From Alphaproteobacteria bacterium (lineage in GTDB: Bacteria > Pseudomonadota > Alphaproteobacteria > UBA7887): a DNA stretch of 64,000 nt. Where the stretch lies: assembly GCA_965216755.1 (NCBI GenBank), contig CBDCGL010000011.1:2784001-2848000 (forward strand), read 5' to 3'. A program made the position numbers and the translations under genes. The notes under the pieces were generated by a model. The model was given only the letters and a program-made list of their open reading frames with translations. It made no database searches and was not told the origin of the DNA. This document shows positions 6,600 to 44,073 of the stretch, piece after piece (position 1 is the stretch's first letter; each line of letters begins with the position of its first letter).

Positions 6600-9023
6600 T
6601 CACAATCCTCGGCGCCACGTTAGCGCGGCAACCGCATAGAGGATGACCGCCAGCAAAACCACCGCCGAAAAGCCGAATTCGATCGCGAGCAAAGTCGCCA
6701 AAACAGCGCTCACCACAGAGGCGCAGCCATTAATCCCCCAGGCCCACGGGACAAGATGCGGCAGTTCATGCCCGACTTGCGCCAAACCAAGGGGGAATGG
6801 CATGCCCATAAAAAACGCCAGCGGTGCAATCGCGAGCAAAACCAAAGGAACCTTTACAGAGACCGGTAGGGTGATCAGCCAGTGGGTCACCGGCCCCAGT
6901 GCAATCAGATAAACAACCGCGATAACCGAAATCACCCCAATCGATACGTCGACTGCCGTCAAGCGACCTGTGTCCGGCATGTACGCGGCCAAGCGCGGGC
7001 TCATCCCGGCGCCTAAACCCGCGAAGACAAGAAACGCCGCCAGCACCACCGCGACGGCGTAAATGGGATGGCCGAGGAACAGTGTCAGGCGTTGAATGAA
7101 GGCCATCTCTACAAACAGAAAGGCCAGCCCGAGAGCGACAAAATAGATCGCGACCCGTCCGGCGCCGCCGCGCACGATAGCCGCATTGCGACGCCACACG
7201 ACAAGCGGCAACAGGATCAGCACGATGCTGACCGCGCAGGCCTGCACCAACGTCAGTACAAGAATGATATGGCCCCACTCGATCAATGGCATGGTCCCTT
7301 GACGACTCAGCGCCAACAACTCCGGTAGTGCATTCCACTTAAGAAAATCATGAAGAAATGGGCGATCGTCGCGTGCGGGGCGCAAATCGAATTTATAGTC
7401 GGCTAAGAACCTCTGGTGTCGCGATCCCAGAAGCGCTGTCGCGCCGTCGTACAAGTCGGGCTCATCAAGAATATTGAATCGATTGGCCTGGTTGCGTGCC
7501 AAACCAGGTGCATAGGTCATGTCGAATCCGCGCGTTTCGGCAAATTGGCCAGCCGCTTCGACCTCCTTTGTTGTCAACGTGCCTCGTTTCACCAGCAGCA
7601 CGACGCTCTTGATGCCACGGATCATCAGCAAACTCTGGCGCGGGTTCGCGGCCGCGACCCGGTGCAGTGCCTCGATCGCCGTCGCCAGCAGCTTCAACGC
7701 CATGCGCGGCGGCGGTTCGAACGGTGCATCAATGGCCAAGAAGCCACCATCGTTCAGGTGTTCAAGATAACCGACGAAGGCTTCGACCGTGGCGCCGTAA
7801 GTCTCTTGCAAACTGCCAAACCCGCCGGCCGTCGCACCGGTCAATGGCAGCCGGATCAAATCAAACCGATGGTCGGCGAGAGCCAGGGCGCCGCGCGCAT
7901 CCGCTATGTGGAATCGCGTACGCGGGATGTCATACACATGTCCGGCATAGTCGGCAAAGCGCGCACGCAGCAACGACGTCACACCGACGTCCGGTTCGGC
8001 AATCTCCACGGTTCGGGCGTCGTGCCGGCGCGCCAGCAGCACTTCGTCAGCAGCTGCGGTGCTGAGCAGCAATACACTTGGTTGCACAAGCAAATGATAG
8101 GGCAGCGCGCGGGTCGTGAAATCGAGATAGGCGACCTTTTCGAGGTCGCCATCAAATCGCGTTATGGCGGCAGTGAAGTTGCCATCGATGAATAGACCCA
8201 ATTGCGCGGCCGGCGGGACAGGGCCCACCAAGCTCAAACCTGGTGCGTGGCGGAATGGTACCTCGGGGCTGCGCACGACCGCCAGCCGACCGAGCGGGCT
8301 GGATTGCTCGTGAATCACTTCGGCGCCGGGCACATGCTGCGCGTAGCTGAGGTCTTTGTATGGCGATAGCTTCGCCATGAACGTCTCAGCCGGTTCGCGC
8401 CACGCAACCATCGCGCCGCACGCAACGATGGCTATGGCCCACCATCTGAAAGCACCATGGCTGTCGCGCAATACGACGAGCGTGGCGGCACCGAAACCGA
8501 CAACAATCAGCCACCGCATCGCATCGCCCGCGGGTAACAGAAACAGCAAGGCCGTGATCGCGGCCGCTCCGGCGCCGGCGCCGGTGAGGTCGTAGCGATA
8601 GACACGCGCGACCGGCGCATTCGCCTCGCCGCCGCCGTGACGCATGAACGACAGGCCAATACAACTCGCCGCACAAAAAAACGGCACCATCAGCACCAAA
8701 TAGGTCCAAAGCAGTTCGATCGCCTGGCCCGGATCCCAAGCCAATTCAAAGGGGTTGATAATAATGTTGCGGGCCACCGAAAAACCATATGCCGCACTCA
8801 GCCCGAACAGTGCGGCGAAGACACCCCACGCTAATTCATAGTGTACCATCAGGCGCGCACGCGCCAAGGCCAGGAATGTCCCGCTGGCGCCATAGCCGAG
8901 CAAGGCAATGGAGATGATCATATAAGCGAAATGGTGCCATTGGCCGGCGGCGTAGAGCCGCATGAGCAGGATTTCGTAAGCGATGGCGCCGGCCGAAACC
9001 AACGAGATCGCCAGGAATGGCAC
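6600..9023 (-). CDS. Multi-pass membrane protein with central spermidine-synthase-like (class I SAM-dependent fold) domain
   Basis: YEILLMR...HHFAYMIISIALLGYGASG TM region, SSPLG, ADARG, TVEAF, DDRPF, LGLAFLFVE, WAWGINGCASV. GTG start abuts the pcm stop. Confidence 0.8.
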   Translation of the reverse strand: MPFLAISLVSAGAIAYEILLMRLYAAGQWHHFAYMIISIALLGYGASGTFLALARARLMVHYELAWGVFAALFGLSAAYGFSVARNIIINPFELAWDPGQAIELLWTYLVLMVPFFCAASCIGLSFMRHGGGEANAPVARVYRYDLTGAGAGAAAITALLFLLPAGDAMRWLIVVGFGAATLVVLRDSHGAFRWWAIAIVACGAMVAWREPAETFMAKLSPYKDLSYAQHVPGAEVIHEQSSPLGRLAVVRSPEVPFRHAPGLSLVGPVPPAAQLGLFIDGNFTAAITRFDGDLEKVAYLDFTTRALPYHLLVQPSVLLLSTAAADEVLLARRHDARTVEIAEPDVGVTSLLRARFADYAGHVYDIPRTRFHIADARGALALADHRFDLIRLPLTGATAGGFGSLQETYGATVEAFVGYLEHLNDGGFLAIDAPFEPPPRMALKLLATAIEALHRVAAANPRQSLLMIRGIKSVVLLVKRGTLTTKEVEAAGQFAETRGFDMTYAPGLARNQANRFNILDEPDLYDGATALLGSRHQRFLADYKFDLRPARDDRPFLHDFLKWNALPELLALSRQGTMPLIEWGHIILVLTLVQACAVSIVLILLPLVVWRRNAAIVRGGAGRVAIYFVALGLAFLFVEMAFIQRLTLFLGHPIYAVAVVLAAFLVFAGLGAGMSPRLAAYMPDTGRLTAVDVSIGVISVIAVVYLIALGPVTHWLITLPVSVKVPLVLLAIAPLAFFMGMPFPLGLAQVGHELPHLVPWAWGINGCASVVSAVLATLLAIEFGFSAVVLLAVILYAVAALTWRRGL

Positions 9024-31257: not shown

Positions 31258-31935
31258 CTATTCAGCCGCCTTTGGCTGCAGGATCGCCTGCCCGGTCTTT
31301 TGCCAATCGTCGAGGAACGCTTTCAGGCCTTTATCGGTCAGCGGATGGGCGACCAGTTGGCGCAGCACCTTCGGCGGCACCGTCGCAACCTGGGCGCCGA
31401 GCTTGGCGGCATCTATCACATGCAGCGGATGACGGATTGACGCGACCAGAATCTCCGTCGTCAACGTGTCCGGATAGTTGTCGTAAATCGCGACGATTTC
31501 GGCGATCAGGTCCATACCTGTTGCCCCGATATCGTCGAGCCGGCCAACGAATGGTGATATGAATGTCGCCCCCGCCTTGGCCGCCAGCAATGCTTGGGCG
31601 GGCGAGAAACACAGGGTGACATTGACCATCGTGCCATCGTCGCGCAGGCGGCGACAGGCCTTGAGGCCATCCCATGTCAACGGCACCTTGACCGCGACGT
31701 TTTGGGCAATCGCAGCCAATGCGCGGCCTTCGGCCACCATGCCGTCGAATTCGGTCGCCGTGACCTCGGCGCTGACCGGCCCCGGCACCAGTTCACAGAT
31801 CTCGGCGATCACGTCGAACATCGGCCGGCCGGTCTTTGCTATAAGGGATGGATTGGTGGTGACGCCGTCCAGCAAGCCGGTGGCGGCGAGATCACGAATT
31901 TCCTCGGTATCGCCGGTGTCGATAAAGAACTTCAT
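31258..31935 (-). CDS. tal: Transaldolase (TalC/MipB small type)
   Basis: [41 protein letters not shown]. The Glu/Phe signature favours transaldolase over FSA. Confidence 0.92.
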
Positions 31936-32010
31936 GATGTGCTGTCTTCCGCGTTCTAAGGAAATGCCGGCCCAATGGGGACGTCCGATCGGCGGTGGCG
32001 AGTTTAGCCG

Positions 32011-34245
32011 ATGACATCGCAACCCGCCAGCGCGCCCGGCCTGCCGGGGCTGGCAGACGATGATACGGCCACGCGCGATTCGACGCCGCGCACGGTCGCC
32101 GTGTTGTTGCCGCTGCCGCTCGATGGGCCCTATGACTACCGTGTCCCAAGCGGCGCATGCCTGACTGTCGGTCAATTTGTGCGCGTGCCCTTCGGACCGC
32201 GTCAATTGATCGGCGTTGTCTGGGGCCCGGGCGCCCAGACCGTGGCCACCGCCAAGCTGCGCGACGTTACGGAAATTATCGACGTCGCGCCGATGGCCGA
32301 CGACCTGCGCACCTTCATCGACTGGGTGGCGCGCTACACCATGGCCACGCCGGGAGCGGTGGTGCGCATGGCAATGAGCGTCCCGCAAGCTTTTGAAGCC
32401 GAAACACCGCAAATGCTTTACAGCGCCGCCGACACGCGGCCGGCGCGGATGACGCCACAACGGCAAAGAATCTTTGACCTGTTGACCGACGGCCCAGCCA
32501 TGGCCGCCGGCGATTTGGCGCGCGAAGCCGCTGTCGGCGCCGGTGTCGTGCGGGCCCTCGCCCGCGACGGGCATCTGGTCGCCCGGCCGGCACCGAAAGC
32601 GGCACCAATGCCGGTGCCCGACCCAACCCGCCCGGGACTACCCTTGTCCGACGAACAATCGACTGCCGCCCACTATTTGAGCGCCAAAGTCACCGCACAA
32701 GCCTTTGCCGTCGATGTTTTGGATGGCGTCACCGGTTCGGGCAAAACGGAAGTGTATTTCGAGGCCATCGCCACCGCCTTGCGCCTGCAACAGCAAGTGC
32801 TGGTCTTGCTGCCCGAAATCGCGCTTGGTGCCCAGTGGCTGGGGCGCTTCGAAGCGCGGTTTGGGGCGCGCCCGGCCGAATGGCATTCGGGCTTGGGCCA
32901 AGCGCAGCGACGGCGCACCTGGCGCGCGGTCGCCGCGGGCCGCGCATCGGTTGTCGTGGGCGCCCGCTCGGCCCTGTTCCTGCCCTATCGGAAATTGGGC
33001 CTGATCGTGGTCGATGAAGAACATGACCCATCGTTCAAACAGGAAGATGGCGTCATCTACAACGCCCGCGACATGGCGGTCGTGCGCGCCCGCCAAGCCG
33101 GCTTTCCGGTTGTCTTGGTGTCGGCGACGCCTGCCATGGAAAGCCACCAGAACGTACGTCGTCAACGCTACGGCCATGTCGCGCTGAGCCGACGCCATGC
33201 GAACGCCGCCATGCCCGAAATCAGCTTGGTCGACATGCGCGCGACACCGCCCGCGCCCGGCCGGTGGCTGTCGCCGCCCTTGACCGATGCCATCAGCGCG
33301 GCCACCAAGGACGGCGCGCAGGCGATGTTGTTCCTCAACCGCCGCGGCTATGCCCCGCTGACATTGTGCCGTGCCTGTGGGCACCGGTTGCAATGCCCCA
33401 ATTGCAGCGCGTGGCTGGTCGAACATCGCCTGGTCGGCGCGCTTCGGTGCCACCATTGCGATCACGCCGAACGGCTGCCGCAACACTGCCCATCATGCGA
33501 AGCGGGCGATGCGCTGGTCGCCTGCGGGCCCGGTGTCGAGCGCCTGGCAGAAGAGGCCCATGCCCGCTGGCCTGAAATGCGTGTCCGCGTCATGGCCAGC
33601 GATACGGTCAGCAACACAAAGCTTGCCATGGCACTGGTCGACGACATGCTGGCGCACAACATCGACCTTTTGATCGGCACCCAGATGGTCACCAAGGGCC
33701 ATCATTTTCCCAATTTGACCGTGGTTGGCGTGATCGATGCCGATCTTGGCTTAGCCGGCGGCGATCTGCGCGCCGCCGAACGCACGTACACGATACTGGC
33801 ACAAGTCGCCGGCCGCGCCGGCCGTGCCGATCGGCCGGGGCACGTGTTCCTGCAGAGTTATATACCCGAACACCCGGTGATGCAGGCACTGGCCGCCGGC
33901 GACCGCGACCGGTTTGTCGATGCCGAGTTGGACGCCCGCCGGGCCGCCGGCATGCCGCCGTTCAGCCGATTGGTGGCGGTGATTGTCTCGGGGCCGGACG
34001 AGGCCGCGGCCCGCGCCGTCGCCGTCGCATTGGGCCGCGCGGCGCCGCGCACGGACGAAGTTGACGTCGTCGGACCGGCCCCGGCCCCCTTTGCCCTGCT
34101 GCGCGGCCGCTATCGATTCCGGCTGCTTTTGCGCGCCTCGCGGGCAACCGATGTGCAAGCGGTGACCCAACATTGGCTGGCGCAGGTGAGCGCGCCGTCG
34201 GCGGTGCGCGTTGGGGTCGATGTCGATCCCTACAGCTTCCTGTGA
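32011..34245 (+). CDS. priA: Primosomal protein N'
   Basis: [30 protein letters not shown], two Cys4 zinc sites, [12 protein letters not shown]. Confidence 0.98.
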
Positions 34246-34409: not shown

Positions 34410-34970
34410 GTGGCTGAAGAGGCTGCAGGCGTTTCCGGGCTCGCCGGTCGTTACGCGACCGCTTTGTTTGAGTTGGCCGAAGAGCAAGGCCAACTGGACG
34501 ACGTCGCGCGCGACCTGACGACGTTGCGCGCCATGCTCAACGATAGCGACGATTTGCAGCGCTTGGTGAAAAGCCCGGTGATCGCGCGCGACGACCAGGT
34601 CAAGGCTTTGTCCGCGGTGGCGGAACGGGCCGCGTTGAGCGCTCTGGTGCGCAATTTCTTGGGCCTTTTGGCGCGCAACCGGCGCCTGTTCGCCGTCGCG
34701 GACATGATCGCCGCGTTCGGCGCGCTGTTGGCCGCGCATCGCGGCGAGGTGACCGCCCAGGTGAGCAGCGCCCAAGCACTAAGCGACGCGCAAATGGCGT
34801 CTTTGAACGCTAGTTTGAAAAGCGCTATCGGTCGCGACGTGCGGATTGAGGCCGACGTGGACTCGTCCTTATTAGGGGGGCTGGTGGTGCGCATCGGCTC
34901 GCGCATGATCGACAATTCACTCAAAGCCAAGCTGCAAGGGCTTAGGTTGGCGCTGAAGGGCATCGGGTAA
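34410..34970 (+). CDS. atpH: ATP synthase F1 delta subunit
   Basis: [30 protein letters not shown] start at 34410 after GAGGG. Confidence 0.96.
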
Positions 34971-36499
34971 TGGAACTCCGCGCGGCAGAAATCTCCGAAA
35001 TTCTCAAGCAACAGATTGCAAACTTCGGTACCGAGGCAGAGGTTGCCGAGGTTGGCCAGGTCCTGTCCGTCGGCGACGGTATCGCCCGCGTTTACGGCCT
35101 GGACAAGGTGCAAGCCGGCGAGATGGTCGAGTTTCCCGGTGGCATTCGCGGCATGGCGCTAAATCTTGAGTCGGACAATGTCGGTGTCGTGATTTTTGGC
35201 AACGACCGGTCGATCAAAGAAGGCGACACCGTCAAACGCACTGGCGCGATCGTCGACGTCCCCGTTGGCAAGGGGTTGCTCGGCCGCGTGGTCGACGCGC
35301 TCGGCAATCCGATTGACGGCAAGGGCCCGATCGAAGCGACCGAACGGCGCCGGGTCGATGTGAAGGCGCCGGGAATCATCCCGCGACAGTCGGTGCATGA
35401 GCCGATGCAAACCGGCCTGAAAGCGATCGACAGCCTGGTGCCGGTCGGTCGCGGCCAGCGCGAATTGATCATCGGCGACCGGCAAACCGGCAAGACGGCC
35501 GTCGCCATCGACACAATCATCAATCAAAAACCGATCAACGCCGGCGGCGACGAATCGAAGAAGCTCTATTGCGTGTATGTCGCGGTCGGTCAGAAACGGT
35601 CTTCGGTGGCGCAGATCGTTAAGACGCTGGAGGACTATGGCGCGATGGACTATTCCATCGTCATCGCCGCCACCGCGTCAGAACCGGCGCCATTGCAGTT
35701 CCTGGCGCCCTATGCCGGCTGTGCCATGGGCGAGTTTTTCCGCGATAACGGCATGCACGCGCTGATCATCTACGATGATCTATCCAAGCAGGCGGTTGCC
35801 TATCGCCAAATGTCGCTGCTGCTGCGCCGGCCGCCGGGCCGCGAAGCCTATCCGGGCGACGTATTTTACCTGCATTCGCGCTTGCTCGAACGGGCGGCGA
35901 AAATGAACAGCGACAATGGCAGTGGCTCGCTGACCGCCCTGCCGGTCATCGAAACCCAAGCCGGTGACGTGTCGGCCTATATCCCGACCAACGTCATCTC
36001 GATTACAGACGGCCAGATCTTTCTGGAAACCGAGCTGTTCTATCAAGGCATTCGACCGGCGATCAATGTTGGCCTGTCGGTGAGCCGGGTGGGTTCGGCG
36101 GCGCAAGTCAAAGCCATGAAGCAAGTGGCCGGCACGATCAAATTGGAGCTCGCGCAATATCGTGAAATGGCGGCATTCGCGCAGTTCGGTTCCGATTTGG
36201 ATGCGGCCACCCAACGCCTGCTCAATCGCGGCGCGCGTCTGACCGAACTTCTGAAACAGTCGCAGTTCTCGCCAATGACGGTCGAGGAAATGGTGGTGTC
36301 GATCTTTGCCGGCGTGCGCGGCTTCCTTGATGGTATCGACGTCAGCGAAGTCAACCGTTTCGAAGAAGGGCTTCTGGGCGAAGTGCGGGCAAAACACGGC
36401 GATATTTTGGAGACGATTCGCAACGAGGCGGCAATCTCCGATGAAACTGACGGCAAACTGACGTCGCTCATGACCGACTTTGCCAAGACGTTTGCTTGA
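34970..36499 (+). CDS. atpA: ATP synthase F1 alpha subunit
   Basis: [29 protein letters not shown]. Confidence 0.99.
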
Positions 36500-36537: not shown

Positions 36538-38917
<2,380 letters not shown>

Positions 38918-38922
38918 CTGTT

Positions 38923-39333
38923 ATGGCCGACAAGGTTGAATTCGAACTCGTCTCGCCCGAAGCCCTGGTCGAATCGCGCCAGGTCGACATGGTCGTCGTG
39001 CCTGGAGAGGAAGGCGATTTCGGTGTGCTGCCGGGCCATGCGCCCTTCATCTCCCAAGTACGCCCGGGGTTGATCGAAATCTATGATGGTCAGAACGTCA
39101 CCGATCGCCTGTTCGTCGACGGCGGGTTTGCCGAGGTCACGCCGGAACGCTGCACGGTGCTGGTCCAGGAAGCGGTGCCGCTTGGCAACTTGGATCGCGA
39201 CATGGTCGATGCGCGCATCAAAGCCGCCCGTTTAGCCATAGAGGACGCCCAAAACGACGCCGAACGCGACGCCGCGGCCCACCGCCTCAAAATAGCCGAG
39301 AGCATGCAAGAGGTGCTCGCCGCCGCCCTTTAG
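38923..39333 (+). CDS. atpC: ATP synthase F1 epsilon subunit
   Basis: FELVSPE, GDFGVLPGHAP, GGFAEV. Confidence 0.98.
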   Translation: MADKVEFELVSPEALVESRQVDMVVVPGEEGDFGVLPGHAPFISQVRPGLIEIYDGQNVTDRLFVDGGFAEVTPERCTVLVQEAVPLGNLDRDMVDARIKAARLAIEDAQNDAERDAAAHRLKIAESMQEVLAAAL

Positions 39334-39544: not shown

Positions 39545-40360
39545 ATGAAGGACTGGTCACTCGACGACATTCCCTGGCACGCTTTCCAGGCAGACAAAGT
39601 GGATCCGCAGTTGCTGGGCGCGGTCAAGGCCGCGGCGCTGGTCGAACATAACGGCCGCGACTACGAAACATACCTGCACAATGTCTTCCACAATGAACCC
39701 GACTTTTGCGACACCGTCACGAAATGGGCGGCGGAAGAAGTGCGCCATGGCGAAGCACTGGGTCGCTGGGCGGGGTTGGCCGACCCGGAGTTCGATTTCA
39801 CGGCGTGTTTTGGCCGCTTTCGATCCGGCTATCAATTGCCGCTAAAGGCATCCGATTCCGTGCGCGGTTCGCAGGCGGGCGAACTGGTCGCGCGCTGCGT
39901 CGTCGAATCTGGAACTTCATCCTTTTATTCCGCCATGCGCCACGCTGCCGACGAACCGGTTTTACAAGAGATATGCCGTTTGATCGCGGCGGACGAATTT
40001 CGCCATTACAAATTGTTCTACGATGGGCTAATGCGCTATGTGCGCAGCGGCGAGATCGGTCGTGCTCGGCGAATTATGATTGCATTGAGCCGCGTCATCG
40101 AATCCGAGGATGAAGAACTCGCCTATGCGTATCATTGTGGCAACAAGCTGCCTGAGCCCTTCGACCGGCGCGCCTGCAGCCGCGCCTATGCGCGCCGCGC
40201 CTATCGCCTATATCGATTCGGCCATTTGCGCCAGGGGCTTGGCATGACTCTGAAGGCCGCCGGGCTGAAACCGTATGGCCGGATCGGCACGGCGCTCAGC
40301 CGCCTGTCATGGCGCTTCATGCAGTTTCGGATCCGCATGTTGGACCGGGTGGCGGCCTGA
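39545..40360 (+). CDS. Ferritin-like di-iron domain protein
   Basis: W..DDIPW N-terminus and paired E / EXXH ligands: LVEHN, EEVRH, VVESGT, DEFRHY. Confidence 0.85.
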   Translation: MKDWSLDDIPWHAFQADKVDPQLLGAVKAAALVEHNGRDYETYLHNVFHNEPDFCDTVTKWAAEEVRHGEALGRWAGLADPEFDFTACFGRFRSGYQLPLKASDSVRGSQAGELVARCVVESGTSSFYSAMRHAADEPVLQEICRLIAADEFRHYKLFYDGLMRYVRSGEIGRARRIMIALSRVIESEDEELAYAYHCGNKLPEPFDRRACSRAYARRAYRLYRFGHLRQGLGMTLKAAGLKPYGRIGTALSRLSWRFMQFRIRMLDRVAA

Positions 40361-40584
40361 CCCCGGATCGGTCCGTGTTCCGCGGACACCAATATATACA
40401 CACGATTTCAATTACTTAAGAGGATTCTGATGCTCTGCGCCCGGGTATCTGTGGGGCGCACCATTTTTTTTCTGCGCCTCAACCCCCTCTGGCCAAGCGC
40501 TGCGTGTTTAGAAGCAGACCAACATGACACGGTCACCGAAACACAGCTTCCACTCACATCAACGCTTCTTAGGGGACTTGACCA

Positions 40585-41097
40585 ATGAACGCATTTCTGA
40601 AGATCTCGGCCGCCGTCGCTGCTTTGACCGTGGTTTCCGTTTCGGCCGCTTCGGCTGACGATGTCAACTTCGACTTCACCAAGGTTAAGCAAAAAGCCGC
40701 CGTCGTGAACGTTCTGTCGAACAACGACTTCGGCAAGGAAAGCGGCGCCAAGAAGGGTGGCCTGACGGTCAACGGTGTGCTGCAGGATGCGGTCATCGCC
40801 GAGGGCAATGCCACGGTCGCGGTTGGCAACTACGCCGACGCCCGCACCCGGATCGGCACGGTCGAGAACGGTGAGATCAACGGTGTGATGCAGCGTGCCG
40901 TGATCGCCAAGGACAACGCCAACGTCGCCTACGGCAACTACGCCTACAGCCGCCTGCACATCGGCACGGCGCGTGACATCGAGGTCAATGGTGTTGTGCA
41001 GCAGGCCGTGATCGCGAAGCGCAACGCGGCGGTGTCTGTCGGCAACCACACCACCACCTGCATGGAGATTGGCACGCTCGGCACCCCCACTTGCTAA
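40585..41097 (+). CDS. Secreted protein with three 36-aa tandem repeats (predicted beta-solenoid; candidate fibre/functional amyloid major subunit)
   Basis: Sec signal ending ASA|DD. Three repeats NGV.Q.AVIA..NA.V..GN.......IGT. C-terminal C-x10-C. AGGGG RBS and strongly biased codons. Confidence 0.8.
   Translation: MNAFLKISAAVAALTVVSVSAASADDVNFDFTKVKQKAAVVNVLSNNDFGKESGAKKGGLTVNGVLQDAVIAEGNATVAVGNYADARTRIGTVENGEINGVMQRAVIAKDNANVAYGNYAYSRLHIGTARDIEVNGVVQQAVIAKRNAAVSVGNHTTTCMEIGTLGTPTC
40768..41094 (+). repeat. Three imperfect 108-bp coding tandem repeats
   Basis: Units start at 40768, 40876 and 40984 (GTC AAC GGT GTG / ATC AAC GGT GTG / GTC AAT GGT GTT). Confidence 0.88.
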
Positions 41098-41126: not shown

Positions 41127-41166
41127 GAGGGCGGGACCCGCGGAAACGCATACGGGTTCCGCTCTT
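41127..41166 (+). terminator. Intergenic stem-loop (leaky terminator or mRNA stabiliser)
   Basis: GAGGGCGGGACCCG / CGGGTTCCGCTCTT 14-bp stem with three G-U pairs and a 12-nt loop. No long U tract. Confidence 0.65.
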
Positions 41167-41233
41167 CGCTGCGAAACCAAGACATCAGCCCGAACGGCAC
41201 CGTTCGCAACCAATGCCAACAAGGATACCGACC

Positions 41234-41539
41234 ATGACCAAAGCAGCTTTCGTGATCGCGTTCGCCAGCGCCCTGACCATGGCCGCCGCCACCGGCGCCA
41301 GCGCTAAAGAGTTCAATCAGCGGCCCCATTTGGATTCGGGCTCTCAGTCGCGCGTCAACAGCGCGTTTGCCAAGACCTTCCTGAACCGCGGCCAAGCCCG
41401 CCGTTTGGAAGATCGCGCCAGCGACTGCGGCAATGTCAGCATCGGCAACGTCGATCCGGGCAATGGCCAAGCCCCGCGCGAGATTATCGTCGTAGCCAAG
41501 AACGTCATCAACGTTGTCGGCCCCGGCGGCTGTCGCTGA
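41234..41539 (+). CDS. Small secreted protein with a Cys pair and one permuted copy of the neighbouring repeat (candidate nucleator/minor subunit)
   Basis: AAGGA RBS, signal ending ASA|KE, C-terminal CGNVSIGNV...REIIVVAKNVINVVGPGGCR. Confidence 0.78.
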   Translation: MTKAAFVIAFASALTMAAATGASAKEFNQRPHLDSGSQSRVNSAFAKTFLNRGQARRLEDRASDCGNVSIGNVDPGNGQAPREIIVVAKNVINVVGPGGCR

Positions 41540-41578: not shown

Positions 41579-41875
41579 TCACCGACCGATCGAAACTGGC
41601 GCGAGCGCCGGAAAGCGCACCACATAGTAGGGGGGCGCCGAGTCATTGACGCCCCCGTTGAGGCGCGCGGACTTGTGGAGACGATTCACAGCCGCGTAAA
41701 TGTAGTTATCCGGACCGGTCGCAAATCCATCCGGCCAGTCGAGAAGATCATCGTCGGACACCAGCAGCTCATACGTGCCATCCGGCCGCGTCACGCCGAT
41801 GCCCTTGGCGTTCATATCCGTGATGTAGACATTGCCGTGATCATCAATGGTGATGCCACCGCAGGGCGGCGCATT
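41579..41875 (-). pseudogene. 5'-truncated fragment of a major royal jelly/yellow (L-dopachrome tautomerase-related) beta-propeller gene
   Basis: PPCGGITIDDHGNVYITD...LLDWPDGFATGPDNYIYAAVNRLHKSARLNGG...PYYVVRF...GR*. In-frame TGA at 41876-41878, and no N-terminal part nearby. Confidence 0.72.
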
Positions 41876-42036: not shown

Positions 42037-42354
42037 TTAGTCCTGCGACGAATCGATAATGATCTCGTCACCGTTGCCGTCGTCTTCGGTTTGGTCTGAT
42101 GTCGGCGCGTCATCCGCGCCCTCGTCCGTTTCGGTAGGCACCTGCGGAACGGTGGGCATCGGCAGGGGTTGCGCCTCTTCAAGCCGCTCGGGAGTCCAGA
42201 ATTCTTCGTCCTCAGTGGTCTGTTCGGGCGCGTCTTTTCTTTCAACCTCGGTGTCTTTACGATCATCGTCACCACGTTCGGCGGCGCCCGCACCAGTCAT
42301 GTGCATTGCTATTCCAATCCAAATCAGGGCCACTATTTCACGTTTCACACGCAC
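42037..42354 (-). CDS. Secreted acidic protein consisting only of a protease-propeptide-like motif
   Basis: GGAGG RBS, GTG start, signal-like N-terminus, EEFWTPERLEEAQPLPMP motif, very D/E-rich. Confidence 0.75.
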   Translation of the reverse strand: MRVKREIVALIWIGIAMHMTGAGAAERGDDDRKDTEVERKDAPEQTTEDEEFWTPERLEEAQPLPMPTVPQVPTETDEGADDAPTSDQTEDDGNGDEIIIDSSQD

Positions 42355-42415: not shown

Positions 42416-43423
42416 TCAATTGCACCGCGCGTCAACGTAGCGGAGCAAGCGCCAGGTGTTGCGATCAAAATACGGGCCCCACATTTCCTTTGGGCTGTTT
42501 ATGTATTTGAATGAGTTCAGGCCGATTGCGTAGTTGTTTGCACCGGACTGCCCCACTTTCAAATCACCGATCCAACTGCCACCGCTGGAACCGCCACCGA
42601 AGGAATTGCGTTTCATTTCGACGACGCCATTGGTCACGCGCCCCCGCCAGCCTTCAATAACTTGCATATACTTGCCACTGTCAAAGTTGCTGGGATAGCC
42701 GATCGAATGAAATCGACGATAAGGGATGCCCGTGCGAAATCCGAGATGTCCTCCCTTTGACGCTTGCGCCATGCAAATAAACGCATAATCCCACTTGTAC
42801 GGCCATTGCGCCGTGTACCAATTCTTGTAGATGGCGATGAATCTCGGCGATGCAAGTTGACCATTGCCATTGGCGTAGGCGCGGTAAAAACGGTGATTGT
42901 TGTACCAGCGTTTGTTCCTTCGATCATAAACGCAATGTGCGGCCGTCATCAGCACACGGCGATCAGCCACATATTGTGCCGAGCAATACGCCGTTCTAGG
43001 CGTTCTAAAATAGAGTTTGCCGCCGGCGGAGAACGGGAAAACCTTTACATTCGCGCGACGTGACGCGCCAAGGGCCGGGTCTTCCAAATCCTCATCGCTG
43101 GCGTCCTCGGCCTGCGCCGACTCGATCACTTCCGGCTCTGAGTCCGCCAGTTCATCAATCATGTCGGCCTCGGTCGGCGCCAGAAACTCCTCGAATTGCT
43201 CTTCCGAGATAACCGGCAGTTCGACAGGCTCGGCAAACTCTAGCTGTTCCTCAACCCAGAAGGCGTCCGCCTCTGCCGCCATGTCCTCTTGAATTTCGAG
43301 GACATCGATAGACTGGTCTGCCGCGCCCCCTTCATCTCCAGTGTCAATATCTTGAGCAAGAGCGGTGCCCGCCAAGATCAAGCAAGCTCCGATCATGCTC
43401 ATAGGTCCACGCACACACATCAT
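42416..43423 (-). CDS. Secreted trypsin-like serine protease (V8/glutamyl endopeptidase-like) with acidic propeptide
   Basis: Signal peptide, GKLYF, YCSA, MTAAHCVY (His), WDYAF (Asp), IGYP, GGSSGGSW (Ser). GAGGGAGG RBS before ATG 43423. Confidence 0.9.
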   Translation of the reverse strand: MMCVRGPMSMIGACLILAGTALAQDIDTGDEGGAADQSIDVLEIQEDMAAEADAFWVEEQLEFAEPVELPVISEEQFEEFLAPTEADMIDELADSEPEVIESAQAEDASDEDLEDPALGASRRANVKVFPFSAGGKLYFRTPRTAYCSAQYVADRRVLMTAAHCVYDRRNKRWYNNHRFYRAYANGNGQLASPRFIAIYKNWYTAQWPYKWDYAFICMAQASKGGHLGFRTGIPYRRFHSIGYPSNFDSGKYMQVIEGWRGRVTNGVVEMKRNSFGGGSSGGSWIGDLKVGQSGANNYAIGLNSFKYINSPKEMWGPYFDRNTWRLLRYVDARCN

Positions 43424-44073
43424 GATTAACCTCCCTCTTTCTAAAAACCCAAGTCTCCAATAAACGAGAAACAAACATTGCAACAAACAAACCTAACCGC
43501 GTAATTTACCTGGGATTGTTTCATTCGATACCAAACATGGATTGATCGACTGCTTTCCATACTCTCTCATTGTTCAAAAATACTGTTTATATTGGTAGAC
43601 TTAATTGTCCTTTCCTCAGCATATCGCATTGCAATTACTTGCTTATTTTTTTTCTGAAAGTATTTATTTGTATTTCATTTCCTCGCGAAGGAAGAATGTC
43701 AAACAAACGCCGGCACACATTCAACATGGCGATCTGCAGGTCACCGCAGAAAGAACCCGTATTACGTGTGTTTATGGACCATAACACACGTTAAAGTCGT
43801 TATTCTACTGAAAAGATTTCCTCGGCAACAAAAAGACTGCCACCGATTCTAATTCGGGAATTTGTTATGGCATCACGCGTTTGGGGGATATTCGGTCACT
43901 CTGGTGGCACCATTCCGGCTGCGCGACTTGGACGTCAATGCCACGTAAACGCCAACAGCCGACGTAATAGTTCACGTGCGGCCAGCACGTTCTGTTTTCA
44001 TTCGTCCGACTTAAAAACAATCACAGCGACCGCTGACCTACCAAGTCGAAGCGCTGTATTGCTATCAATCGCG

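Follow-up and report, generated by a model that had tools for sequence, protein, structure and literature searches.

Only for a few bacterial functional amyloids have the subunit, the nucleator and the exporter all been worked out. The model cases are curli and Fap; a third system, the holdfast anchor of Caulobacterales (HfaA/HfaB/HfaD), is poorly resolved. The curlin unit is a strand-turn-strand of roughly 22 residues, and the Fap system uses the FapF barrel. FapC, according to PMC12392863, has three imperfect repeats that form one cross-β layer each and are held by conserved Asn/Gln hydrogen-bond networks; its fibril core comprises residues 45–96, 110–161 and 173–234, and the layers are joined by loop linkers. 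Many alphaproteobacterial curli loci consist of subunit genes and one small adjacent gene, csgH (PMC3521004), and in Caulobacter the CsgG-like lipoprotein HfaB is needed for surface placement of the small amyloid-like HfaA (PMC6707917; bioRxiv 10.1101/2022.07.20.500906). Here we analyse a 64,000-nucleotide stretch of DNA (hereafter the window) from an Alphaproteobacteria bacterium of the UBA7887 lineage (GenBank assembly GCA_965216755.1, contig CBDCGL010000011.1, positions 2,784,001 to 2,848,000), which carries a gene for a small protein ending in three 36-residue repeats, and we report these repeats, the family to which they belong, a conserved partner gene and, in relatives, a CsgG-like neighbour. 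We see about an even chance that the protein is a subunit of a surface fibre or anchor resembling those of curli, Fap or the holdfast anchor and is exported via a CsgG-like channel encoded elsewhere in the genome.

A protein with three 36-residue repeats

The open reading frame (ORF) at 40585–41097 (+) in the program-made ORF list encodes 170 amino acids plus a stop codon, and a Shine–Dalgarno-like AGGGGA, read from the sequence at 40571–40576 (+), lies 8 nt 5′ of its ATG at 40585. The first 24 residues (40585–40656, +), with a short basic start, a hydrophobic stretch and SAASA, look like a Sec-type signal peptide with an A-x-A cleavage site before DD, and the protein is probably Sec-exported with about 146 mature residues. 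The N-terminal segment of the mature protein, residues 25–61 (40657–40767, +), is non-repetitive and predicted to be disordered; it is unmatched by a hidden Markov model (HMM) of the repeat, and the predicted local distance difference test (pLDDT) score of the AlphaFold2 model stays below 50 for residues 1–58. The C-terminal 109 residues (40768–41094, +), about two thirds of the ORF, consist of repeats of 36 amino acids at 40768–40875 (HMM i-E 7.8e-14), 40876–40983 (i-E 4.8e-13) and 40984–41094 (i-E 1.7e-12), all on the plus strand, the third of which includes a terminal Cys. The only Cys residues of the protein, Cys159 (41059–41061, +) and Cys170 (41092–41094, +), form a putative disulfide staple.

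An earlier reading of the DNA, made from the letters alone (the sequence-only reading), had described three gap-free 36-residue repeats at these positions, and translation gives its quoted strings exactly. Recomputation reproduced the absence of indels and all sixteen of the 36 positions it had listed as invariant (N2, G3, V4, Q6, A8, V9, I10, A11, N14, A15, V17, G20, N21, I29, G30 and T31), and its remark that no Pro precedes the last three residues is borne out by the sole Pro of the whole protein, residue 168. The repeats, with a gap-free period of 36, are pairwise identical at 21/36, 18/36 and 17/36 amino acids and at 76/108, 70/108 and 68/108 nucleotides. Scored against itself at lag 36 with BLOSUM62, the repeat region reaches 174 with 38 identical pairs (z = 22), a value attained by 0 of 5000 shuffles of the region, each taken at its best score over any lag from 5 to 74 (mean −2.3, s.d. 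7.9, maximum 34). A half-period is absent, lag 18 scoring −63. Searches of the 64-kb window by tblastn and a six-frame HMM scan found no second gene or unit copy, promoter and terminator scans found no sigma-70 promoter or canonical terminator around the gene, and Rfam gave no match near it; the public protein collection contains an identical entry, P0002. The idea that this is not a real gene, or that its repeat arose by chance, is already refuted, its probability being practically nil: the z of 22, a G+C content at third codon positions (GC3) of 0.82 with a ribosome-binding site in place, the existence of relatives with conserved turn glycines and the sparing of invariant positions in a paralogue all speak against it, and no point in its favour was found.

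Synonymous divergence between the repeats had been taken as a sign of selection on the protein. Identical residues are encoded by different codons between repeats in 4/21, 10/18 and 6/17 cases, and Nei–Gojobori dN/dS between whole repeats is 0.74, 0.53 and 0.88. With dN/dS only 0.53–0.88, the constraint is therefore position-specific and not global, the 20 variable positions having drifted almost freely while the 16 fixed ones were held. A paralogue (P0003), encoded on the same 4.85-Mb contig (4,853,305 bases), is 89% identical to the window protein and differs from it at 19 residues, 14 of these in the repeats; of these 14 differences, a single one affects an invariant position, where 6.2 would be expected (binomial P = 0.003). 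Selection on the protein is thus upheld for the ladder and turn positions, which the paralogue spares, but not globally, whole-repeat dN/dS lying at about 0.5–0.9.

Codon choice in the repeat gene is strongly C/G-ending, with AAC for 14/16 Asn, AAG for 8/9 Lys and ATC for 8/9 Ile codons. The window's atp/suc/mdh/lpdA genes use AAC in 62/120, AAG in 109/181 and GGT in 75/430 cases; GGT, at 5/16, is enriched in the repeat gene against this reference, yet GGC (11/16) is still its commoner Gly codon. On an index modelled on the codon adaptation index, with the 11 atp/suc/mdh/lpdA genes of the window as reference and the repeat gene outside it, the gene ranks second of 41 window genes. Its codon usage is compatible with an abundant, highly expressed protein, as the sequence-only reading had proposed from AAC, AAG and GGT.

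A rare family without annotation

HMMER searches of 1.84 billion cluster representatives returned 17 proteins at E <= 1e-3, namely the query, a chimeric 149-aa protein (P0004), 13 small, distantly related proteins of 96–234 aa and two long repetitive proteins (P0008 and P0014). The last two were rejected as spurious, the repeat HMM finding 0 units in either, and the family considered here comprises 15 proteins: the 13 small ones, the window protein and the paralogue P0003. Trained on family members only, a repeat HMM recognises 45 units in the 15 proteins, two to five in each; homologues with different repeat counts, which had been suggested as something to look for, do exist. Across the 45 units, conservation is highest at G30 (45/45), A18 (38/42), A25 (38/45), I29 (35/45), G20 (32/43) and T27 (32/45), and the alignment identifies A18-x-G20 ... 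A25-x-T27-x-I29-G30 as the family hallmark. When the repeat regions of nine sequences are aligned, repeat positions 3, 20 and 30 are Gly throughout, as would suit turns. Of the Asn/Gln positions behind the ladders proposed in the earlier reading, Q6 (22/35) and N14 (21/40) are moderately conserved across family units, whereas N2 and N21 are features of the window protein and its paralogue.

A hydrophobic, signal-like N terminus opens 14 of the 15 members, and the remaining one, P0017, may be truncated. The mature part of 11 of the 15 members contains exactly two Cys residues, the first within the last unit and the second close to or at the C terminus, and that of the other four contains none; the number of Cys is never odd. 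Together with the probable Sec export of the window protein, this pattern is indirect support for the proposed disulfide-stapled last rung, in which the bond itself is putative.

By its sequence, the repeat protein is a member of a rare family without name or annotation. Pfam and NCBIfam gave nothing above noise for the repeat protein, for the product of the partner gene described below or for 14 family members; at E <= 1 in Pfam, the repeat protein matched only TAT_signal and DUF4183, both at E 0.12. A source name was attached to one member only, a hypothetical protein of an Alphaproteobacteria metagenome-assembled genome (MAG). Sequence searches of PDB chains with the single protein (phmmer) and with the family profile yielded no relevant match, and PDB matches to TPR-like SPINDLY were set aside as spurious. 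In the protein collection, a search with the single protein matched only itself, P0003 and the chimeric fragment P0004; a full-length profile search was swamped by signal-peptide words, and a repeat-only profile, searched among longer proteins, matched P0007 alone. The Atlas placed the repeat protein near unnamed clusters, near one labelled 'Adhesin' (0.89) and near HfaD (0.80), which serve as leads only. Searches of 72,556 plasmid records by tblastn with the repeat protein, P0013 and the partner gave no match, and our literature search found neither a description of a 36-residue-repeat family of this kind nor a paper joining CsgG, Rhodobacterales and amyloid. The fragment P0004 (149 aa, on an 840-base contig) matches P0003 over its first ~55 residues and carries a PF01925 membrane-protein domain in the rest; it is either a chimeric assembly or a deletion that fused the 5′ end of the repeat gene to another gene in a related strain.

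Predicted fold

An AlphaFold2 model, run with a 15-sequence alignment, has a mean pLDDT of 69 and a predicted template modelling score of 0.64, with pLDDT of 79–93 per block of ten residues in the repeat region. DSSP assigns β-strands only, at the same places in each unit, with three to four strands per unit around unit positions 32–36 plus 1–12, 15–19 and 24–29; in the third unit the long strand is interrupted at G3. On this model, the repeat region is predicted to be a β-solenoid with one rung per unit. A structure prediction had been named as the check that could overturn the solenoid, and the model came out all-β, periodic and locally solenoid-like. The claim of one 3–4-stranded rung per repeat thus agrees with the prediction and with the invariant turn glycines, but Foldseek comparison with the PDB gives no significant match (193 at E <= 10, 0 at E <= 0.001); the modelled rung shape fits no solved protein. 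Nearly all of the best neighbours are β-solenoids, and all matches are weak: the FapC fibril 9u4u comes first (E 0.015, template modelling (TM) score 0.14), the CsgA fibril 8enq second (E 0.034), and ice-binding β-helices, SufB/D, SV2 pentapeptide-repeat domains, CcmM and bactofilin follow, all with TM < 0.2.

The protein resembles soluble β-helices (ice-binding, bactofilin and pentapeptide-repeat proteins) in its predicted stack of short parallel strands and in having them among its Foldseek neighbours, but differs in that all of these matches have E > 0.1 and rung lengths are not the same. Bactofilin is cytoplasmic, whereas the window protein has a predicted signal peptide. Because many of the neighbours are ice-binding proteins, the protein might itself be an ice-binding or antifreeze β-helix. 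We consider this very improbable, since all of those matches have TM < 0.15 in addition to their E > 0.1, similarity in sequence to any solved ice-binding protein is absent, the conserved positions show no sign of a flat, Thr-rich face, and gene context in relatives points to envelope export.

The more serious rival, which we nevertheless judge unlikely, is that the protein is a capped, non-polymerising β-solenoid, a periplasmic or surface monomer with a binding or structural role, for example towards polysaccharide or peptidoglycan, in which the Cys-stapled last rung would be the end cap; it would then be an ordinary small β-helix. Soluble β-helices are kept from stacking by capping elements, which the terminal Cys pair of 11 of the 15 family members looks like; soluble β-helices, among them ice-binding proteins and SufD, make up many of the Foldseek neighbours, and no exporter is encoded in the window. 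Against a capped monomer, the two best structural neighbours are amyloid fibrils, the Cys pair is missing altogether in four of the 15 members, and the family member of one related locus (L001, below) is co-encoded with a CsgG-like lipoprotein and a second, single-repeat protein.

A conserved partner gene and a CsgG-like lipoprotein in relatives

The repeat gene is followed by a gene for a small secreted protein with two Cys residues, which we call the partner (41234–41539, +; 101 aa). Its likely start, an ATG at 41234, lies 137 nt downstream of the repeat gene and has AAGGA 8 nt upstream; the ORF is also open from an ATG at 41213 (108 aa), a form absent from the protein collection. The two Cys residues are 35 residues apart. 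Searches of Pfam and NCBIfam place the partner in no known family, and a relation to the repeat unit was rejected (HMM E 0.44 and 7).

When species-representative genomes were scanned with an alignment of a sub-family, 434 stretches matched and a single related locus, L001, was confirmed among them; the 70 stretches matched by another alignment included no relative. The L001 contig, 4153 bases from an uncultured Rhodobacterales MAG, has all its genes on one strand. It begins with a family member, represented by its C-terminal 70 residues only, with two units, the Cys-pair ending and 41% identity to the window protein. There follow a 97-aa homologue of the window partner (tblastn 37% over 87 aa, E 1e-10), a lipoprotein of 518 aa that contains PG_binding_1 and DUF4384 domains, a small secreted two-Cys protein (2276–2608, +), a 169-aa secreted protein that finishes in a single family unit, again with the terminal Cys pair (HMM E 8e-6), and an OmpA-like protein. 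The window pair and the L001 pair together indicate that the pairing of repeat protein and partner is conserved in two distant genomes. The L001 family member sits two genes upstream of the lipoprotein, and its association with the single-repeat protein resembles, by analogy, that of a major and a minor subunit.

Profile comparison identifies the N-terminal domain of the lipoprotein as CsgG/HfaB-like. In hhalign, a 3-sequence profile of this domain matched E. coli K-12 CsgG with a probability of 86.7% (E 4.3e-6) over 204 columns, covering CsgG residues 7–254 of 277, and BLASTP gave E 0.001. The NCBIfam HfaB model matched the L001 lipoprotein at E 5.5e-4 and its Azospirillum ramasamyi homologue at E 8.2e-6, in complementary parts of the model and at 19 and 25 bits against a cut-off of 300; the Pfam CsgG model gave E 0.11. 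The nearest named Atlas clusters were CsgG/HfaB, with a score of 0.89 and 184–187 features in common. A shallow profile, built from near-identical sequences, gave a weak result (probability 5%). The assignment rests on profile comparison because the AlphaFold2 model of the L001 domain, built from a single sequence, was unusable (pLDDT 34.8).

Full-length homologues of the lipoprotein are encoded on Azospirillum chromids, with 48% identity in A. ramasamyi (L003) and 34% in A. lipoferum 4B (L004), and an OmpA family gene follows the lipoprotein in both loci. Before the lipoprotein, A. lipoferum 4B encodes a 97-aa secreted protein with two 36/37-residue units that share the G3, G20-N21 and I29-G30-S/T register with the window repeat, although support for its kinship is weak (HMM E 7.7, hhalign E 0.039, phmmer best E ~1e-3 in a 24-sequence set). 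A 126-aa two-Cys protein, likewise encoded before the lipoprotein in A. lipoferum 4B, resembles the window partner weakly (hhalign E 0.0025, probability 12%, 74 columns) and matches the L001 partner at a phmmer E of 6e-4. In A. ramasamyi, two DUF4399 proteins and a pair of extracytoplasmic function (ECF) sigma and anti-sigma factors are encoded upstream of the lipoprotein, with no repeat protein. Two-Cys proteins with a C-W-Q-x-G motif are encoded after the lipoprotein in L001 (the gene at 2276–2608, +) and after the OmpA gene in L003 (8463–8819, +); they match each other at a phmmer E of 7e-5 and look like a further conserved, unnamed component of the module. Neither the signal peptide nor the partner gene had been noticed in the sequence-only reading, nor had the CsgG-like surroundings of the relatives.

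Genes with signalling functions also surround these lipoproteins. In A. lipoferum (L004 8794–13401, and L005), the region downstream encodes two FHA proteins, two PP2C proteins, a trypsin-like protein, a DUF805 protein and a Ser/Thr kinase; in A. ramasamyi (L003 2103–3431 and 8845–13464), the ECF sigma/anti-sigma pair is accompanied by a second DUF4384 protein, an adenylate cyclase and a SUMF1-like gene. The repeat protein could accordingly belong, as a periplasmic component or a ligand, to a module for envelope signalling centred on the CsgG-like/DUF4384 lipoprotein instead of forming a fibre, given that in A. lipoferum the FHA to kinase genes follow the lipoprotein–OmpA pair and that in A. 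ramasamyi the lipoprotein is preceded by the sigma pair and followed by adenylate cyclase. In the papers found to mention DUF4384, titles and abstracts concern caspase homologues, kinases and Deinococcus, and none is on secretion; a literature search found no paper linking DUF4384 to CsgG. The signalling genes are linked to the lipoprotein by adjacency, however, no such genes lie beside the pair in the window, and codon usage of an abundant protein suits a structural role better than a regulatory one, all of which makes a signalling role improbable.

Comparison with curli, Fap and the holdfast anchor

Like FapC and FapB, the window protein is small, has a predicted signal for secretion and carries three imperfect repeats, with N2, Q6, N14 and N21 invariant among them, and the FapC fibril is the best, if weak, structural neighbour of its model. 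Unlike them, it has no sequence similarity to Fap: PDB chains including solved FapC, searched by phmmer and with the family profile, gave no Fap match at E <= 10. FapC layers are longer and joined by linkers, whereas the 36-residue units of the window protein abut without linkers, and relatives of the window protein adjoin a CsgG-like lipoprotein. Neither in the window nor in L001 did Pfam and NCBIfam detect a Fap component (fapA–F) among the neighbours.

With curli, the protein shares the character of a secreted repeat protein with a predicted β-solenoid, the CsgA fibril being its second-best Foldseek neighbour, and its relatives are encoded beside a lipoprotein whose N-terminal domain aligns to E. 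coli CsgG. The window also resembles alphaproteobacterial curli loci in its pair of subunit and small partner. In contrast to curli, the repeat protein does not match the Pfam Curlin_rpt model at E <= 1, hhalign of the repeat profile gives 0.6% probability against E. coli CsgA and 0.1% against CsgB, and the unit has 36 residues and three to four predicted strands. A relation of the partner to CsgC, CsgE or CsgF was rejected, no similarity being found, and the CsgG-like protein of the relatives has additional PG_binding_1 and DUF4384 domains.

The holdfast anchor, like the system described here, is alphaproteobacterial, and HfaB is the best named NCBIfam match of the L001 and L003 lipoproteins, far below its curated cut-off. 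The repeat protein and the partner differ in matching no Hfa model at E <= 1, in a library that may lack an HfaA model, and no holdfast synthesis genes are present among the genes of the 64-kb window. By sequence, then, the repeat protein is not a curlin, not a Fap protein and not a detectable Hfa protein; any kinship with curli, Fap and the holdfast anchor would lie in how the system works.

A candidate surface fibre or anchor

Taken together, the repeats, the single-unit L001 protein, the partner and the CsgG-like lipoprotein with its OmpA neighbour lead us to favour a subunit of a surface fibre or anchor, and export via a CsgG-like channel is proposed because the gene pair of the relatives lies directly upstream of a CsgG/HfaB-like lipoprotein and an OmpA-like gene. 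In this scheme, an unstructured lead of ~37 residues would precede three 36-residue units, each predicted to form one β-solenoid rung with turns at G3, x13-N14, G20-N21 and I29-G30. Small aliphatic side chains (Ala, Val and Ile) and Asn/Gln would be stacked in register, and the last rung would probably be pinned by a Cys159–Cys170 disulfide. The protein, made together with its small two-Cys partner, would cross the outer membrane via a CsgG-like channel encoded outside the window, and stacking of rung on rung at the cell surface would yield the fibre or anchor.

Several observations weigh against this scheme. Within the 64-kb window, tblastn at E <= 1 detects no relative of the CsgG-like lipoprotein, no secretion gene was found and the neighbours are housekeeping genes. 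In sequence, the repeat protein resembles neither CsgA, CsgB or FapC nor any solved chain, and its model has no significant Foldseek match (0/193 at E <= 0.001). The operon context comes from one clear locus (L001) and one weak one (A. lipoferum), and the A. ramasamyi locus has the lipoprotein with DUF4399 proteins in the place of the repeat protein. CsgG-like proteins are in any case not specific to amyloid export, 171 of 601 Pfam CsgG matches lying in curli loci according to PMC3521004. In addition, the disulfide-closed C-terminal end could be a cap that blocks stacking, and a narrow CsgG-type pore might not let a pre-formed loop through.

The gene neighbourhoods of the relatives suggest a new variation on secreted functional amyloids or anchors. 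More boldly, and with a chance we place clearly short of even, the protein and its partner may form the core of an undescribed alphaproteobacterial class of functional amyloids or surface fibres beside curli, Fap and the holdfast anchor. In such a class, subunits with 36-residue rungs would be closed by a disulfide in the last rung, the two-Cys partner, whose Cys span of 35 residues is about one rung, would nucleate, cap or chaperone them, and the export channel would be a divergent CsgG-like lipoprotein with fused peptidoglycan-binding and DUF4384 domains and an OmpA-like protein as its companion. The different rung length, the terminal disulfide and the dedicated partner would widen the design space of secreted β-solenoid fibres, as would the link of the relatives to a CsgG-like channel with peptidoglycan-binding and DUF4384 domains. 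If this is true, some of the many CsgG-like proteins outside curli loci would receive their first assigned function. So small a subunit (three rungs, 109 residues) is also attractive for structural work and for engineered protein materials.

Surroundings of the gene pair

A GC-rich stem-loop, found by RNA folding at 41127–41166 (+), begins 30 nt 3′ of the stop codon of the repeat gene and is without a U-run; the whole 141-nt stretch that contains it folds with a non-significant z of −1.64. One possible role for the stem-loop between the two genes is that of a partial terminator or stabiliser.

Within a housekeeping region that includes polA, obg, proB, gpmI, priA, atpHAGDC, lpdA-sucBADC-mdh and sdh, a short variable stretch separates atpC from lpdA and contains the repeat gene. 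The upstream neighbour of the repeat gene (39545–40360) encodes a ferritin-like or desaturase-like protein, and no link between the two was seen. After the partner, on the minus strand, come two short ORFs and then a trypsin-like protease (42416–43486) of low GC and low codon adaptation, its value of 0.537 being the lowest of the 41 genes scored. A kinship of this protease with the trypsin-like gene of the A. lipoferum cluster was rejected, the two being unrelated. The first of the short ORFs (41579–41815, −; 78 aa), between the partner and an acidic ORF, has no Pfam match and may be a gene remnant. The second, the acidic ORF of 105 aa (42037–42354, −), has a signal-like start and is similar to the likewise acidic N-terminal part of the protease (30% over 100 aa, E 2e-7), as if a pro-region of that enzyme had been duplicated or truncated. 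Between the protease gene and lpdA, positions 43200–44000 are AT-rich (GC 0.39–0.47 against 0.62 for the window), and this stretch, with the nearby gene fragments, suggests a variable, possibly acquired insert between atpC and lpdA.

Further observations concern the genome and the rest of the window. AtpD (37496–38917), AtpA (34970–36499), AtpC (38923–39333) and the ferritin-like protein are singletons of 90%-identity clusters in ~15 billion proteins, and the genome therefore seems to be without a closely related sequenced relative; atpD is ~77% identical in DNA to Sinorhizobium and Sphingomonas. An 807-aa ORF at 6600–9023 (−) has coding-like GC3 and is matched by neither Pfam (E <= 1e-5) nor NCBIfam (E <= 0.1). 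The longest ORFs of transaldolase (31258–32574, −) and PriA (32011–34245, +) overlap by ~560 bases on opposite strands, and the true start of transaldolase is probably well downstream because its Pfam match begins only at residue 216.

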